Shown piece after piece: positions 1 to 6,981 of a DNA stretch of 6,981 nucleotides. The stretch is from Candidatus Wukongarchaeum yapensis (GTDB lineage: Archaea > Asgardarchaeota > Wukongarchaeia > Wukongarchaeales > Wukongarchaeaceae). The stretch spans positions 1 to 6,981 of the forward strand of contig JAEOSI010000122.1 in the NCBI GenBank assembly GCA_016840425.1, read 5' to 3'. Each line of letters begins with the position of its first letter. Position 1 is the stretch's first letter. The notes beneath the pieces were generated by a model. That model was not told the DNA's origin. It did not search any database and saw only the letters and a list, made by a program, of their open reading frames with translations. The position numbers and the translations under genes were made by a program.

Positions 1-1656
1 CGTATTTTGACTGAAATTCCCCGCTAGATCGAAAGTATATACGTTTGAAGGTTTTCCACGAATCCATTCTCCATTTTTTCTATGAACAATTTTAAGGACA
101 GCATCCATCATTATAGCGGACACGATTTCTATAGCGGATAGACTGGCAACAGTACATTTACTTGCAAAATCAGGACTTTCAGGAAAGCCTCTAACCCACC
201 TTAAATCCCTTTGATAACAACCAATACACGAATAATCCTGTTCGGATAACACTACCCTTACAGATCCTCTAGTTCCTTCAACTCCACCATTTAAAAAGGG
301 CTTTTCCGCCGCCAAGCTTATGGTTTGAAGCGTTCTTCTCGTGCTAAAATTATCAACACAAGTAGCTACTATATCAACATTTTGAATCATTTTTTCAACT
401 TTTCTCAAACTGGCCTCCAAATCAAACATCATCACCAGCCTGTTTGTTCCCAAGAGTATCGCTGGCATGTTTGCATTAGGAATCTCGAACATATCAGCTT
501 TTACCTCTATAAAAGGAAAATTCTCACCCACCCATTCTTTAACAGCTGTAACCTTAGATTTTCCCACATCGCCTAGCGTGTAAAGACTCTGCCTAAAAGT
601 GTTTTCTGCCTCCACCCTATCCCTGTCTACTACTTCAAGGCTCCCAATCCCGTGTAAACAAAGTAATCTTATGAGTTCACACCCAACAGTTCCTAACCCG
701 CAAACTAAAACCTTTGTTTCACTAAGTTTTTCCATATCATAGTTCATTTTTTTAATCCTGTCGAAAAGTTTTTCTTTCAGCGTTTCAGCTCCGATACTCA
801 TGATTGTATGACTTTTATCCCTATCTCCCTTTATGATTATGTTTTCTTGGGGGATTTTTTGGATTTTCACAGGCATGGTGGAGGCAAACATTTTTACCAA
901 ATAGTAATTGAAATCGATCCAGTTCTTTTCTTGTAAGACTTTACAGAATAAGAACTGCTTACTTCGGGTTTTGTTGTAGTAATTACCCATCAATATCTCT
1001 TCAAGGAAAGTCACATCTTTAATTTTAGAATAATGCCATAAACCCCAACTACTCTGAATCCCTTCCTTGTTCCCGTAGGACACAGGTATTAAGCCCTCAT
1101 CATCTTCTATTTCCTTGATTAAGCCCTTCTCCTCCCCTTTTCTTAAGAGCTCTAAAACCCTTCCTTCGAATGCGAAAAGTAAATTCTCATCCACACCTAG
1201 TATCTCATCCTTTCCAATCTCTTGAAATTTGGCGTTGATGGAGATACGAGGTTGGAAAAATGAAAGCTCTAAATTATCCCCCATAAGACAAGCTATACCA
1301 TAAATCTTAGGAAAGATTATAGGATTATCGGTTATAAGGAGACCTTCAACCCACTTTTCCATAATTACACTATCAATCCCCGAATAACTGCTTAGTCCGT
1401 GGGGGTGAGAGTGCCAATTTCCCAAAATAGAGAGCCCAGGATGGGCGCCTAAAAGTTCTGCATAAGTTGTTGGAGAAATCTTAACTATCCCAGGCGACTC
1501 TTCTGCTTTTAAATCCCGCAAGATCTTTTTTATGAAAACAGAATCTTCAGAAAAATTCCCTAAAAACCAGCCGCCGATCTCCCTGTCTCTTATATCTTTT
1601 ACAAGTTTTTCAAGTTCTAAATATGCTTCAGAACCAATCACTACCTTAAAAGTCAA
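1..1656 (-). CDS. JAB/JAMM metalloprotease - middle domain - ThiF/MoeB/E1-family activating enzyme fusion (C-terminus truncated by window edge, at least 552 aa)
   Basis: Hand translation gives an uninterrupted minus-strand frame from TTG at 1656 to position 1. An upstream in-frame TGA lies at 1704-1702 and an AGGGGA RBS at 1668-1663. N-terminus: MTFKVVIGSEAYLELEKLVKDIRDREIGGWFLG...ILGNWHSHPHGLSSYSGID, a complete JAMM motif (E26, H82-x-H84, x7-S92-x2-D95). C-terminal part: KVLVCGLGTVG (GxGxxG, G320-G325), VVDRDRVEAENTFRQSLY, DVGKSK, VDIVATCVDNFSTR, CIGC (C477/C480) and putative catalytic C501. Missing from the ORF track because no stop codon lies in the window. Confidence 0.92.
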   Translation of the reverse strand, partial: MTFKVVIGSEAYLELEKLVKDIRDREIGGWFLGNFSEDSVFIKKILRDLKAEESPGIVKISPTTYAELLGAHPGLSILGNWHSHPHGLSSYSGIDSVIMEKWVEGLLITDNPIIFPKIYGIACLMGDNLELSFFQPRISINAKFQEIGKDEILGVDENLLFAFEGRVLELLRKGEEKGLIKEIEDDEGLIPVSYGNKEGIQSSWGLWHYSKIKDVTFLEEILMGNYYNKTRSKQFLFCKVLQEKNWIDFNYYLVKMFASTMPVKIQKIPQENIIIKGDRDKSHTIMSIGAETLKEKLFDRIKKMNYDMEKLSETKVLVCGLGTVGCELIRLLCLHGIGSLEVVDRDRVEAENTFRQSLYTLGDVGKSKVTAVKEWVGENFPFIEVKADMFEIPNANMPAILLGTNRLVMMFDLEASLRKVEKMIQNVDIVATCVDNFSTRRTLQTISLAAEKPFLNGGVEGTRGSVRVVLSEQDYSCIGCYQRDLRWVRGFPESPDFASKCTVASLSAIEIVSAIMMDAVLKIVHRKNGEWIRGKPSNVYTFDLAGNFSQNT

Positions 1657-1751: not shown

Positions 1752-2369
1752 CTAGATTAGATGGAACTGCTCTTTTAACATAGTGACTATCATGCTTAAT
1801 GGATTTTCCGTATAACGAACCTGTTTCCATGCCCTGTTAAAATCCTCATCCTGGAAATGAATTCTTCCAGTAACAGTGTCAACACACTGATGATTTAGGG
1901 GAGGATGTATTATTACGCATGGAGGAACCGCTGGATAGCCTATAGAAGGCAAGATGAAAACCTTATACTTCTCCTCTTTTCCACCCCTTGTTTTTACACA
2001 ATTTTTAAAGACTCCTGCGCCTAGATTTTCAGGTATCAAAGCTTCCCAATCTCTATGATATTTTTCAATGTGTAAAAGAGCATGTTTTGCAAAAACCTGG
2101 AACACTGTCGACGGAGTTTCTAACACTGATCCGTAAGGTTGTTCAAAAGACCAACAAATAACGCTTCCTTCATCAATACTCTCACCAATCTTCATCTCAG
2201 GAGATAAGGTTCTTTTAAAAGTGCTTAAGATTATCGGATAGCCCTCGAGACTATACTTCTCGCGTAGAAGGTTTATAATTGTTTGAACACTTTCTTCTCC
2301 TGAAAAATAAACATCTTCATCTTGCCACCCTTGCTCAAAATTAAACAGTTTTACACCGATTTTGCCCAT
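1752..2369 (-). CDS. Ubiquitin-like (beta-grasp) domain fused to a UBC/E2-fold domain (205 aa)
   Basis: ORF track plus a GGTGA RBS at 2386-2382. Residues 1-80 follow the ubiquitin pattern: FSGEESVQTIINLLREKYSL resembles [20 protein letters not shown], and RTLSPEMKIGESIDEGSVICWSFEQPYG resembles [29 protein letters not shown]. Residues ~85-205 carry the UBC signature KYKVFILPSIGYPAVPPCVII-HPPLNHQCVDTVTGRIHF...W (YPxxPP, an HPN-like HQC, and GxI-H in place of GxI-C). The CDS is well supported; the domain calls are pattern-based. Confidence 0.75.
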   Translation of the reverse strand: MGKIGVKLFNFEQGWQDEDVYFSGEESVQTIINLLREKYSLEGYPIILSTFKRTLSPEMKIGESIDEGSVICWSFEQPYGSVLETPSTVFQVFAKHALLHIEKYHRDWEALIPENLGAGVFKNCVKTRGGKEEKYKVFILPSIGYPAVPPCVIIHPPLNHQCVDTVTGRIHFQDEDFNRAWKQVRYTENPLSMIVTMLKEQFHLI

Positions 2370-3466: not shown

Positions 3467-3677
3467 GAACTCATAACTTTTTGAATTTTATAATCATTTT
3501 TATGTTAAGAAAAAGGGGATTTTGGAACTCTTTAAGATTTGTCTTTTGGTTCGTACATTTTTCAAAAATCATAAAATGGGTTTTTTGGTTCGCTAATCTT
3601 TTAAAGAGATGTTTTTTTCAGTTTTATGAGAATTGTTATTTTTGGTCTTTTTCACTTTTTTGAGCGGTGGCATTTTG

Positions 3678-4382
3678 ATGAATGGTTATATATCTTCGGG
3701 GTGTAAGCTTCTTGATGCTCTTTTGGATGGTGGTTTTCCTAGGGGTAGACTTGTTCAAGTTTATGGTAGAAAATTTGTGGGAAAAACCACTCTTGCCCTC
3801 CAGATTGCTCTTGTAAATGCTGAAAAAGGCTTGAAAACCATCTTTATAGATACGGGACAGGCTTATCTTCCTTACAGGCTTTCTCAGATGATAAAACAAA
3901 GGAATGAGAAAGATCTTGAGCAGATTTTTTTTATCAAAGCAAAATCGTTCAAAAGCCAGTTGAAGATCATAGATAAAATAAACTTTTACATAACACCAAA
4001 AACATGCGCCATAATAGTTGACAACATAAGTCAACACTATCTTACTGAGCGTTTAAAATCAAAGGATCAGAAAAATATGACCTTGGGAAGGCTTCTAGCA
4101 TATCAGATAGCAAGTTTGAACTATATAGCAGAAGCTCACAATATAGCCGTTGTGGTGACAAACAACGGTTATTTTAAGAAGGCAGAAAAAGAATACGTCC
4201 CCGTAGCAAGAGGAATAATGGAAAAATATTCCGACATAATTCTTCTCGTGGAACACGACGCTGTAAAACCTAGTGCAAGAAAGATCATCCTAAAAAAGAA
4301 ACTTCTAGACAAAGAGTATCCCTCCCTTACAAAAACTGCTTTTTTCACACGTGTATCTCTAACTGAAGAAGGGCTAATCTAG
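3678..4382 (+). CDS. radB: RadB-like RecA/Rad51-paralog ATPase (234 aa, no N-terminal HhH domain)
   Basis: ISSGCKLLDALLDGGFPRGRLVQVYGRKFVGKTTLALQIA (Walker A), TIFIDTG, AIIVDNIS (Walker B), LNYIAEAHNIAVVVTN. Start moved to ATG 3678, with a GCGGTGG RBS-like motif at 3664-3670. RadB versus another paralog (aRadC type) cannot be resolved by eye. Confidence 0.8.
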   Translation: MNGYISSGCKLLDALLDGGFPRGRLVQVYGRKFVGKTTLALQIALVNAEKGLKTIFIDTGQAYLPYRLSQMIKQRNEKDLEQIFFIKAKSFKSQLKIIDKINFYITPKTCAIIVDNISQHYLTERLKSKDQKNMTLGRLLAYQIASLNYIAEAHNIAVVVTNNGYFKKAEKEYVPVARGIMEKYSDIILLVEHDAVKPSARKIILKKKLLDKEYPSLTKTAFFTRVSLTEEGLI

Positions 4383-4395
4383 TCCTGAAAAGTTT

Positions 4396-4878
4396 TTAGG
4401 GCGCTTGACTTGTTCCTCCAAATTTTCTGAAGGCGTAGGGATTAAGCTTGCTTTCCAGCATATAATTTACGCCGAAATAGCTTACTAATATCAAAGCTAT
4501 ACCCGCATAAAGGAGGAGATTTGCATATTTTGGGTCATAAGCGTATTTAGTACTCTGATATAACAGGATAAAACCTATCCCTCCAACAATAAAAAGAATA
4601 CCTGCAACTAGTCCCTCAAGGAGAAACATTCTATCAAACTGAGGATACAAGAATATGGGACTACCCGTTGAAGTAAAAGCCAAGGCTGTAGGCTTTTCAA
4701 TAAGGATATAGATCCCGCCACTTAGAAGAAACCAGATCGTAACTAAAACTAAGACTGTCATCCTATTTTGTGTAGGCCTTGGCAACTCAAACTTAGGCTT
4801 TCTAAGTTCCAATTTCGGCCTCTTGATAAAGGGTATAATCCACTTAAAATGGGGCTTGGAAATTTTCAAAAAACCCAT
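4396..4878 (-). CDS. OST3/OST6-family oligosaccharyltransferase accessory subunit, OSTC/DC2-like (3 TM, no thioredoxin domain)
   Basis: PFIKRPKLELRKP...MTVLVLVTIWFLLSGGIYILIEKP...MFLLEGLVAGILFIVGGIGFILLYQS...LLYAGIALILVSYF...KL parallels the remembered human OSTC/DC2 sequence along its whole length. Likely start is ATG 4878 or TTG 4869 (GTGAGG upstream), rather than the track's GTG 4953. Confidence 0.85.
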   Translation of the reverse strand: MGFLKISKPHFKWIIPFIKRPKLELRKPKFELPRPTQNRMTVLVLVTIWFLLSGGIYILIEKPTALAFTSTGSPIFLYPQFDRMFLLEGLVAGILFIVGGIGFILLYQSTKYAYDPKYANLLLYAGIALILVSYFGVNYMLESKLNPYAFRKFGGTSQAP

Positions 4879-4981
4879 CCTCACAATGCTTGAATAATAA
4901 AGATAATTTTTTGCCCGTTTTATACTTTTATCGCCGTGCTTATAAATTATCACTTTTTATAAAAATCAAATCATATAAAAG

Positions 4982-5209: not shown

Positions 5210-6981
5210 ATGTCTTTTATAAAGAGTGGTTTAGGTTGGATCAAGGATAAAATCTCTCGTCCAAATGTTACTAGAAGCACGGTTCTTCATTACACGGTCT
5301 TATACCTTATCTTGCTTTTAGCTTTCCTATACAGGGTTTATCCTTATTTTAAATATGAACATATCCTTAAGGCTTACGACCCTTATTTCCAACTCCGTAT
5401 GGCGGAATACATAAACGAGAATGGTTTTGGCTCCTTCTTTGACTGGCATGATGAAAGGACGTGGTTTCCTGCAGGAACAGAATGGGGGAAAGCGGCTTAT
5501 CCAGGAACACCACTAGTCGCCGTGGCAATTTATAAGATCCTTAATTGGGTAGGATTTAGCATAAGTTTGTATACTGTTTGCTATTTTTTCCCCGCTATTT
5601 TTGGAACCTTAACAGTTTACATGATCTATAAACTCGGTACAGAACTGGCAAATGAAAAGGTTGGATTAATCGCGGCCTTCTTCTTATCCTTTAATCCTGC
5701 TTATGCTCAAAGATCAGTCGTAGGATTCTTCGATAACGAAGCTTTAGGAATATTCCTCATCATAACATCTTTTTACTTCTTCATAAAAAGCTTAAAGACT
5801 GGGTCGGTTACCAACGGCATCCTTGCAGGATTGTTCTTAGGATTCTTGGCTGCAAGTTGGGGTGCTTTCAGGTTTGCTTTAGATATGATTGCCATATATG
5901 CTTTTATTCTTCTCCTTCAAAAAAGATATTCAAACCGTTTACTCATATCTTACTCCCTAACAGTTTCCACAGCCTTACTCATGACTACGATAGTTCCAAG
6001 AACTGGCATGAGTATTGTTACGGGTGTTGAAGGAATTTTCCCCCTAGCAGTAATGGGGCTCCTGATTTTCTACGGATTGACAAACTACTTTTCAGACTTG
6101 ATGCCTAGGACTAGAAGTCCTTTTATGGAAAAATTGAGCGATTTATGGCTTCCAATCATTGTCGTCATTATTCCTTTATTTCTAGTTGCTCTATGGGCTT
6201 TTGGAGGCATCACTGGTATAAGCGGTAAGTTCCTAGGCGTACTATTACCAACAATAAGGGAGGGCACGCCCCTCATAAACTCAGTAAGTGAACACTTACC
6301 CCTTTCATGGGCCAACCTTTACTACTCCGTGGAAATACTGCTTTTCTTAGTGCCTGCAGGCGCTTATTTCCTGATGAGGAATCCAAGCGAAGAAAATATT
6401 TTTCTCCTAGTATTCGGTCTAACAACTATCTACTTTGCTTCTTCAATGGTGCGTTTAATCTTAATTTTTGCCCCTGCAGCATGTCTCATAGCCGCCCTAG
6501 CTATCGACAAAGTTTTGACACCCTACGCATTAGCCTTAAAAGAAAAACTAGCACTAAGCAGAAGAAAAGTAAGAATAAGCGCAATGATCGGAAAAGAACA
6601 AGCAGCAGTAGTCTACATATTCATAGGCATTCTCCTATCTCTAAACATGTGGCACGGCGTACAAGCAGTAGATGAACGATTAGGCCAACCCGAAATGGCA
6701 CCTACCATCGGAGACACAGTACTTGATGACTGGCAGCAGACTTTAGAATTTATGGATACTGCGCTTAATGAAAACACAGTAGTCCTATTTTGGTGGGATT
6801 ACGGCCACTGGGTGACGGCTCTAGGGAACGTTAGAACGCTTGCGGATGGGTCTACGATTAATAGTCTTCAGATTGGGCAGATTGGTCGTGCTTTGGTATT
6901 TAATGAGACGGAGTCTCTTAAGATTTTGTGGGCTTTTAGTGTGGATTATGTTTTGGTGAATTTTGCGGCGGCTGAGATGAA
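5210..6981 (+). CDS. aglB: STT3/AglB oligosaccharyltransferase catalytic subunit (3' truncated by window, at least 590 aa)
   Basis: Hand translation is open from ATG 5210 (GAGGGG RBS at 5198-5203) to the window end. Motifs: AYDPYF (D57, 5378), FFDNE (D175/E177, 5732-5740), SVSEH (6281-6295), MVRL, WWDYG (6791-6805) and DGSTINSLQI, with many hydrophobic TM segments. Confidence 0.96.
   Translation, partial: MSFIKSGLGWIKDKISRPNVTRSTVLHYTVLYLILLLAFLYRVYPYFKYEHILKAYDPYFQLRMAEYINENGFGSFFDWHDERTWFPAGTEWGKAAYPGTPLVAVAIYKILNWVGFSISLYTVCYFFPAIFGTLTVYMIYKLGTELANEKVGLIAAFFLSFNPAYAQRSVVGFFDNEALGIFLIITSFYFFIKSLKTGSVTNGILAGLFLGFLAASWGAFRFALDMIAIYAFILLLQKRYSNRLLISYSLTVSTALLMTTIVPRTGMSIVTGVEGIFPLAVMGLLIFYGLTNYFSDLMPRTRSPFMEKLSDLWLPIIVVIIPLFLVALWAFGGITGISGKFLGVLLPTIREGTPLINSVSEHLPLSWANLYYSVEILLFLVPAGAYFLMRNPSEENIFLLVFGLTTIYFASSMVRLILIFAPAACLIAALAIDKVLTPYALALKEKLALSRRKVRISAMIGKEQAAVVYIFIGILLSLNMWHGVQAVDERLGQPEMAPTIGDTVLDDWQQTLEFMDTALNENTVVLFWWDYGHWVTALGNVRTLADGSTINSLQIGQIGRALVFNETESLKILWAFSVDYVLVNFAAAEM

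Follow-up and report, generated by a model that had tools for sequence, protein, structure and literature searches.

A ubiquitin-like modifier hidden in a Ubl-E2 fusion protein of an Asgard archaeon, with a conserved glycine as its predicted processing site

The processing of a ubiquitin-like protein (Ubl) out of a fusion with its own E2 has a direct experimental precedent in the bacterial Type I Bub operons, in which the JAB-E1 fusion BubCD cuts the Ubl-E2 fusion BubAB immediately after a conserved Gly, as Ye, Gong, Chambers & Corbett (2024, PMC11601596) established with Edman sequencing and with mutants of the active site. These operons, formerly named 6E.1/DUF6527, make up row 6e in the earliest catalogue, that of Iyer, Burroughs & Aravind (2006, PMC1779556). 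In archaea, two reports describe ubiquitin operons of Caldiarchaeum subterraneum and of Asgard archaea that comprise ubiquitin, an E1, an E2, a small RING E3 and an Rpn11-like JAMM protease (PMC5654768, PMC6043591), and the latter describes the processing of pro-ubiquitin by the Caldiarchaeum Rpn11 (PMC6043591). We found no paper in the literature describing the cassette analysed here, in which an Asgard archaeon encodes a Ubl-E2 fusion and, in the next gene, a JAB-E1 fusion. The processing logic that the earlier note on this DNA had put forward from the sequence has a solid footing in the Bub work, and for that same reason is not new (PMC11601596).

The window, by which we mean the whole stretch of DNA that was analysed, is an entire contig of 6,981 bp from a 2.16-Mb archaeal MAG that is 92% complete. 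On its minus strand lie the Ubl-E2 ORF of 205 aa (1752-2369) and, beginning 95 nt past it, the JAB-E1 ORF (1-1656), which runs off the contig end. The other genes, recognised with Pfam and NCBIfam, encode a p27-type zinc ribbon protein, UPF0147, RadB, OST3/6 and STT3. The OST3/OST6-family membrane protein (4396-4953, minus strand) adjoins the STT3/AglB oligosaccharyltransferase (5210-6979, plus strand), a pairing that fits the Asgard origin of the contig. A related-locus search with the single protein returned a sole locus, on a Hodarchaeota contig, where the gene is 93% identical. Since a canonical ubiquitin set sits elsewhere in the source genome, with a PF00240 match of 40 bits (G000:C109:16057-16260) about 1.2 kb from a UQ_con E2 (17509-17772 on the same contig) and a further UQ_con E2 on another contig (G000:C135:1231-1614), the Ubl-E2/JAB-E1 cassette is a second Ubl system of this organism.

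In the translation of the 205-aa ORF the segment S69-VICWSFEQPY-G80 is directly followed by SVLETPST, as the earlier note had read it, with the Gly80 codon at 2130-2132 (minus strand). A single-sequence AF2 model (pLDDT 46.8) was unusable, and only the model obtained with a 30-row homologue alignment (mean pLDDT 86.4) was used. This model contains a beta-grasp fold at residues 3-74, with strands 3-10, 14-23, 47-49 and 70-74 and a helix at 28-39, followed by a UBC/E2 fold at residues 86-202, with a helix at 86-104, a beta-meander at 109-155 and helices at 175-184 and 191-202; residues 78-83 form a low-confidence tail with pLDDT below 50. In an exhaustive structural comparison, model residues 1-81 matched modifiers of the ubiquitin family. 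Specifically, residues 3-80 superposed on SUMO1 (chain residues 21-97), with G80 on SUMO1 G97, residues 4-80 superposed on the parkin Ubl (chain residues 1-76), with G80 on residue 76, and residues 1-77 superposed on tetra-ubiquitin (chain residues 150-225); if each ubiquitin copy is counted as 76 residues, model residue 77 corresponds to L73 and G80 to G76. Foldseek against Swiss-Prot aligned residues 3-80 to residues 54-140 of human ATG12, the last of these being the final residue of that entry. These alignments to SUMO1, parkin, tetra-ubiquitin and ATG12 place G80 where mature modifiers have their activating glycine. Taken with the homologues described below, it is almost certain that residues 1-80 (2130-2369, minus strand), which end W73-S-F-E76-Q-P-Y79-G80, are a Ubl, and that in its relatives the homologue of G80 is the free C-terminal Gly. 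The equivalence with ubiquitin G76 that the earlier note had proposed is borne out by the SUMO1 and parkin alignments.

The Ubl is hidden in the sense that no Pfam family recognises it: none was found in any of 18 members, and PF00240 and PF03671 gave no match at E up to 1. The entire Ubl-E2 protein gave no significant family in Pfam, NCBIfam or PADLOC, and an ESM Atlas feature search led to bacterial YukD-UQ_con fusions, all sub-0.9.

An exhaustive phmmer search returned eight relatives only, three of them E2-only proteins, preceded immediately on their contigs by another gene, which encodes about 105 aa. When 400 genomes belonging to the phylum were searched in six frames, ten, the source genome among them, gave strong matches, which comprised both fused genes and adjoining Ubl/E2 pairs, often several per genome, and profile searches contributed 42 more stand-alone Ubls and six more fusions. 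Among these additions, all that bear a name come from MAGs of Hel-, Loki-/Promethearchaeota or Hodarchaeota, and all are annotated as 'hypothetical' and carry no Pfam domain. The resulting census holds 65 distinct homologous Ubl domains, 50 encoded by stand-alone genes and 15 fused to the same E2. Their last residue is Gly in 64 of the 65, the exception being P0006 (ending PPLGA), and the position before it holds Gly in 58, Tyr in four, Trp in two and Phe in one. Most family members end EPIGG, the usual C-terminus being YWxxEPIGG as against CWSFEQPYG in the source lineage, and in an 18-row Ubl alignment E76 and G80 are the only invariant columns. In the source protein the linker is SVLETPST (residues 81-88; 2106-2129, minus strand), and its length and sequence vary among the 15 fused homologues, which have 4-12 residues without conserved sequence before the first conserved E2 Phe. 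The expectation that an aromatic-Gly pair would be invariant and the linker variable was thus right for the Gly and for the linker and wrong for the aromatic residue, since Tyr79 (2133-2135, minus strand), at the position of ubiquitin Gly75, is replaced by Gly in most homologues. This undescribed Asgard Ubl family is a di-Gly family with one aromatic-Gly branch, and the single-Gly type that had been proposed for it holds within the source clade only. One stand-alone Ubl, P0012 (131 aa), has a duplicated tail motif (EAEPIGG-ILSWYLQR-EAEPIGG-RIHFKTRIC), which would provide two candidate processing sites.

Each of the 50 stand-alone Ubl genes immediately precedes a stand-alone E2 gene, and these Ubls run 0-24 residues past the Gly, with a median of 4. 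Two of them, as the earlier note had anticipated for split homologues, stop exactly at the Gly (L002, ending EPVYG, and P0036, ending EPIGG), and the others stop 1-24 residues later, such as the L003 gene, which ends WIPEPIGGR. In L002 the stop that follows FSHEPVYG overlaps the ATG of the E2 gene (GGATGA, an ATGA overlap). A maximum-likelihood tree places the aromatic-Gly (Y/W/F-G) rows on one side of a branch with support 99/96; this clade has six rows, namely the source Ubl, two close copies, P0002/L004, P0005 and L002, of which five are fused, with the split L002 nested among them. Fused genes of the Gly-Gly type are in turn nested among split genes. The tree thus mixes fused with split forms, which means that fusion and fission have both occurred repeatedly, always at this glycine. 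The split loci have the order Ubl-E2-JAB (about 350 aa)-E1 (about 360 aa), four genes that are merged into two in the source lineage, and fused Ubl-E2 genes lie beside JAB and E1 at the source locus and at G399, G120 and L050. At the last of these (L050:3271-7957) the genes are arranged differently: the Ubl-E2 gene, P0005, whose Ubl ends FG, is followed in order by genes for a 229-aa protein, ThiF and Prok-JAB, by two small ORFs and by a gene for a DUF87/HerA-like ATPase.

This comparative evidence supports the junction between G80 and S81, proposed in the earlier note, as the site at which the protein would be processed. An aromatic-Gly Ubl could instead stay permanently fused and act in cis as a domain of the E2, docking or regulating E1 or JAB, with G80 serving as a hinge. 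Such a role would agree with the short linker, with the appearance of Tyr, Trp or Phe at the penultimate position only in a clade with five fused rows out of six, and with the uncleaved Ubl domains that are common in eukaryotic enzymes (parkin, USPs) and occur among the fold matches. We consider it unlikely, since L002 belongs to the same clade and is a separate gene ending exactly at YG, G80 and E76 are invariant at 20-35% identity, the adjoining gene retains an intact JAMM domain, and an E1 requires a free Gly carboxylate.

Two further observations concern the split loci. In six four-gene cassettes of three families the E2 is encoded in frame +1 relative to the Ubl (L035:4340-4500; L036:1840-1930; L037, minus strand, ~4290-4400; L038, ~3540-3590; L039:4380-4440; L040, ~3780-3960). 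The conserved first E2 helix, [AI]-I-S-K-x-x-F-A-E-H, comes straight after EPIGG and overlaps the short Ubl tail; no ATG, GTG or TTG lies upstream of this helix in the six cassettes, and a conserved Ile codon (ATT, ATC or ATA) is found 8 nt past the GGAGG or GGGGG of the Gly-Gly codons. Two explanations suggest themselves: initiation may be non-canonical, the Gly-Gly codons serving as the Shine-Dalgarno sequence, or a programmed +1 frameshift may yield a fusion. Matching 4-residue tails (x-x-[DNH]-[FIL]) occur in 14 further stand-alone Ubls. In addition, a DUF72 (PF01904) gene adjoins two paralogous Ubl/E2 subtypes in the genomes of family f17 and on one metagenome contig (L003:3812-4624; L044:3122-3988; L034:5497-6354; L035:2109-3095; L037:5139-6122; L040:4436-5416), and is absent from the source contig and from the other lineages.

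The candidate protease is encoded next to the fusion. The JAB/JAMM metalloprotease domain of the downstream gene (1207-1656, minus strand; Pfam Prok-JAB, 1.2e-6, residues 25-107) has a complete JAMM motif, E26 ... H82-x-H84-x7-S92-x2-D95, which is conserved in all the homologues aligned. It is followed by a middle domain (approximately residues 151-290; 787-1206, minus strand) whose homologue in the four-gene cassettes is the C-terminal extension that the stand-alone JAB proteins, of 350 aa, carry there. A complex was predicted between the Ubl and the complete JAB-E1 of the 93%-identical orthologue (P0053, contig JBHLKN010000069.1), alongside three controls. The pair scored 0.88, whereas the best of the three controls scored 0.00; of 80 solved complexes 58 reach that mark, as do 2 of 110 mismatched pairs. 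At least 97% of the contacts agreed among the runs, and the partner pLDDT was at least 87. In the model the Ubl sits on the JAB domain, with its tail (residues 74-80) pairing with JAB residues 58-62 and touching E26, H82, H84 and residues 92-95, and with Y79 touching H82 and D95. JAMM-ubiquitin complexes have been solved and are present in the PDB, and the success of the prediction may partly reflect likeness to them. The model supports the binding of the Ubl tail by the JAB domain and, contrary to what a permanent fusion would lead one to expect, would put Y79-G80 in the JAMM site; we regard the neighbouring JAB domain as the probable author of the cut. Against cleavage speaks the bulky Tyr at the penultimate position, where ubiquitin and 58 of the 65 family members have Gly. 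Known JAMM enzymes and E1s grip a Gly-Gly tail, and with Tyr at this position the pocket would therefore have to differ from those of the enzymes that do so.

The remainder of the downstream gene encodes a ThiF-type adenylation (E1) domain (residues 291-552; 1-786, minus strand; Pfam ThiF, 1.1e-40, residues 307-534), which is cut by the contig end and is complete in the orthologue P0053, where a second CxxC is also present. It contains GLGTVG at residue 320, C477-x-x-C480 and a crossover-region Cys501 (KCTVAS), which is kept as CT[VL]A in all the full-length E1 homologues aligned, its placement in the crossover loop being based on sequence. Its top solved relatives in the PDB came from the eukaryotic E1s Uba1 (1e-16) and UBA3, in each case from the active adenylation domain, and UBA5 aligned across the whole adenylation domain. 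The stand-alone E1s of four-gene cassettes start with a further domain of about 90 residues (L035:5779-6864; also L037, L040, L041, L038 and L039), absent from the source JAB-E1 fusion. In L035 this domain matched the Ubl HMM with E 1e-5 and has no terminal Gly-Gly (ending TPIWFRSSEL), and it looks like a built-in Ubl-like domain.

The second half of the Ubl-E2 protein is a divergent E2/UBC-fold domain (residues 89-205; 1755-2105, minus strand), recognised from PDB profile matches and from its invariant columns. Searched against the PDB, the E2 profile gave UEVs as its best matches (E 1e-5), and true E2s also matched, whereas Pfam UQ_con (PF00179) reached 11.7-13 bits, below its cut-off of 27. 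UFC1 entries were the only E2-type entries among the top 50 Foldseek PDB matches. When the canonical E2 features were looked for, the UBC fold was still present, HPN had become H-Q-C and the position of the catalytic Cys was occupied by His: in alignments to the Ubc9-like 4l83 and to UBE2L3, an invariant Cys162 (1884-1886, minus strand) falls on the Asn of HPN and an invariant His171 (1857-1859, minus strand) falls on the catalytic Cys. As read from these alignments, the arrangement would fit a Cys-His site that has moved better than an enzyme that has lost its activity, and the chances that Cys162 carries the tag seem to us evenly balanced. With no Cys where canonical E2s have their catalytic one, conjugation downstream of activation is uncertain. 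A reading of the E2 as an Atg3/Atg10-type enzyme with 'HPC' was considered and set aside; Autophagy_act_C gave no match at E up to 1.

The same E1 and E2 results bear on whether the Ubl might be a sulfur carrier of the ThiS/MoaD/SAMP kind, whose Gly80 would be thiocarboxylated by the ThiF-type E1 for cofactor synthesis or tRNA thiolation, the E2 fold being a non-catalytic, UEV-like adaptor. The E1 does match ThiF and MoeB models, yet far under their equivalog cut-offs and with its best scores against eukaryotic Uba1 and UBA3; likewise, inactive UEVs are what the E2 profile matches best in the PDB and no Cys stands at the canonical site, but the invariant Cys162 and His171 argue for catalysis. 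Moreover, the beta-grasp domain is nearest to SUMO, ubiquitin, ISG15 and ATG12, with no ThiS or MoaD among its best matches, the source contig has no rhodanese domain and no sulfur or cofactor genes nearby, and the source genome has two better ThiF-family genes elsewhere. A sulfur carrier is, on this evidence, very unlikely.

Compared with the Bub operons, the cassette shares the order of a Ubl-E2 fusion gene and a JAB-E1 fusion gene, and its E1 is likewise a minimal adenylation domain of the homodimer type. In Bub, however, the reaction proceeds through oxyesters formed on an E2 Ser (with His and Asp) and an E1 Tyr, whereas here the E2 has the invariant Cys162 and His171 and the E1 Cys is kept; Bub also carries the DUF6527 serine protease BubE, an E2 without C-terminal helices and Ubls with 1-3 beta-grasp domains. 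The Asgard cassette in contrast has a single beta-grasp Ubl, an archaeal host and no defence context that we could see. DUF6527 is missing from the source contig, and PF20137 gave no match in the 92%-complete genome. Membership in Type I Bub was rejected, since the catalytic position of the E2 is not occupied by Ser, the E1 has retained its Cys and DUF6527 is absent. That the cassette is nevertheless a true Type I Bub (6E.1) system by descent or transfer, antiviral and working through oxyester intermediates, is most improbable: besides the shared two-gene architecture it would account for the patchy, multi-copy distribution in Asgard archaea (matches in 10 of the 90 high-quality genomes, a single genome having as many as 4) and for the relative that lies beside a DUF87/HerA-like ATPase, but it would have to accommodate His rather than Ser at the canonical E2 position, the conserved crossover-region Cys of the E1 and the absence of DUF6527, as well as the lack of a PADLOC match for Ubl-E2, the C-terminal UBC helices that the model keeps and BubB lacks, and the housekeeping neighbours RadB, OST3/6 and STT3.

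With the Caldiarchaeum and Asgard ubiquitin operons the locus has in common an archaeal host and a ubiquitin-type beta-grasp tag and, if the fusion is processed as proposed, also the C-terminally extended precursor and its trimming by a JAMM enzyme; Caldiarchaeum ubiquitin was among the Foldseek matches of the model. Those operons differ in that Pfam ubiquitin and UQ_con recognise their tags and E2s and in that a RING E3 is present, whereas the cassette is invisible to Pfam, has a rearranged E2 site and consists of fused genes.

The earlier note had also drawn a parallel with ATG8, ATG12 and UFM1. A single terminal Gly after an aromatic residue is indeed shared with ATG12 and ATG8, the latter also having a C-terminal extension, and both top the Swiss-Prot Foldseek list (aligned to query residue 80), tied with SUMO, NEDD8 and ubiquitin, at E values of about 1e-4 and TM scores by hit of about 0.5. 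However, ATG8 has N-terminal helices, whereas the source model starts directly with beta1 and has no Pfam match; most of the source family ends in Gly-Gly, aromatic-Gly being confined to the source clade; and the predicted processing enzyme here is a JAMM metalloprotease, in place of an ATG4-type cysteine protease. UFM1 is a single-Gly modifier with a short extension (VG followed by SC). Its pathway resembles the locus in that UFC1 is among the E2 fold matches and UBA5 aligned over the adenylation domain, but Uba1 and UBA3 outscore UBA5, and in UFC1 the catalytic Cys is still where canonical E2s have it. UFM1 was absent from the best structural and sequence matches of the Ubl, and PF03671 had no hit in the source genome. 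Asgard Ufm1 homologues have been reported (PMC12962969), and the comparison made here sets the source Ubl beside UFM1 itself. The family being mostly di-Gly, the parallel does not by itself amount to kinship with ATG8, ATG12 or UFM1. A joint reading would make the cassette an Asgard-wide second Ubl conjugation system, spread over Hod-, Hel- and Lokiarchaeial MAGs, in which the E2 thioester forms on a Cys that has moved to the HPN position, His having taken the place of the old Cys, and in which the aromatic-Gly branch of Hodarchaeota, the UFC1-like E2 fold and the minimal UBA5-like E1 are related to the archaeal stock of a non-canonical eukaryotic Ubl pathway of the ATG12/ATG8 or UFM1 type; taken as a whole, we regard this combination as rather improbable.

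The reading that we favour is that the 205-aa product serves as a precursor from which two proteins arise, the Ubl modifier (residues 1-80) and its cognate E2-fold enzyme (about 89-205). The JAMM domain of the co-transcribed JAB-E1 would bind the extended tail (residues 74-80) and cut the G80-S81 bond, freeing Gly80, which would be both the P1 residue of the cut and the predicted C-terminal activating glycine. The E1 domain would then adenylate Gly80 and probably form a thioester on Cys501, and the tag would be passed to the E2, probably to Cys162 with the assistance of His171, for attachment to targets. Cleavage of the source protein, the thioester relay and conjugation are steps that we infer; that this fusion is cleaved between G80 and S81 and its tag then activated appears to us quite likely.

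Eukaryotes are reported to have no closer known relatives than the Asgard archaea, and Hodarchaeota especially, whose ubiquitin machinery is used to reconstruct the origin of eukaryotic protein tagging. To this machinery the present family adds a tag, with at least 65 distinct sequences that have no Pfam family and are annotated only as 'hypothetical', together with its own E2, JAMM protease and E1. Because Bub had already established the principle of processing, the value of the finding lies in the new archaeal family and its chemistry and not in the idea of a hidden Ubl. The arrangement of the E2 active site, with Cys at the HPN position and His at the Cys position, is one for which we found no earlier description, and the repeated fusion and splitting of the genes exactly at the activating glycine amounts to a natural experiment that marks the processing site.
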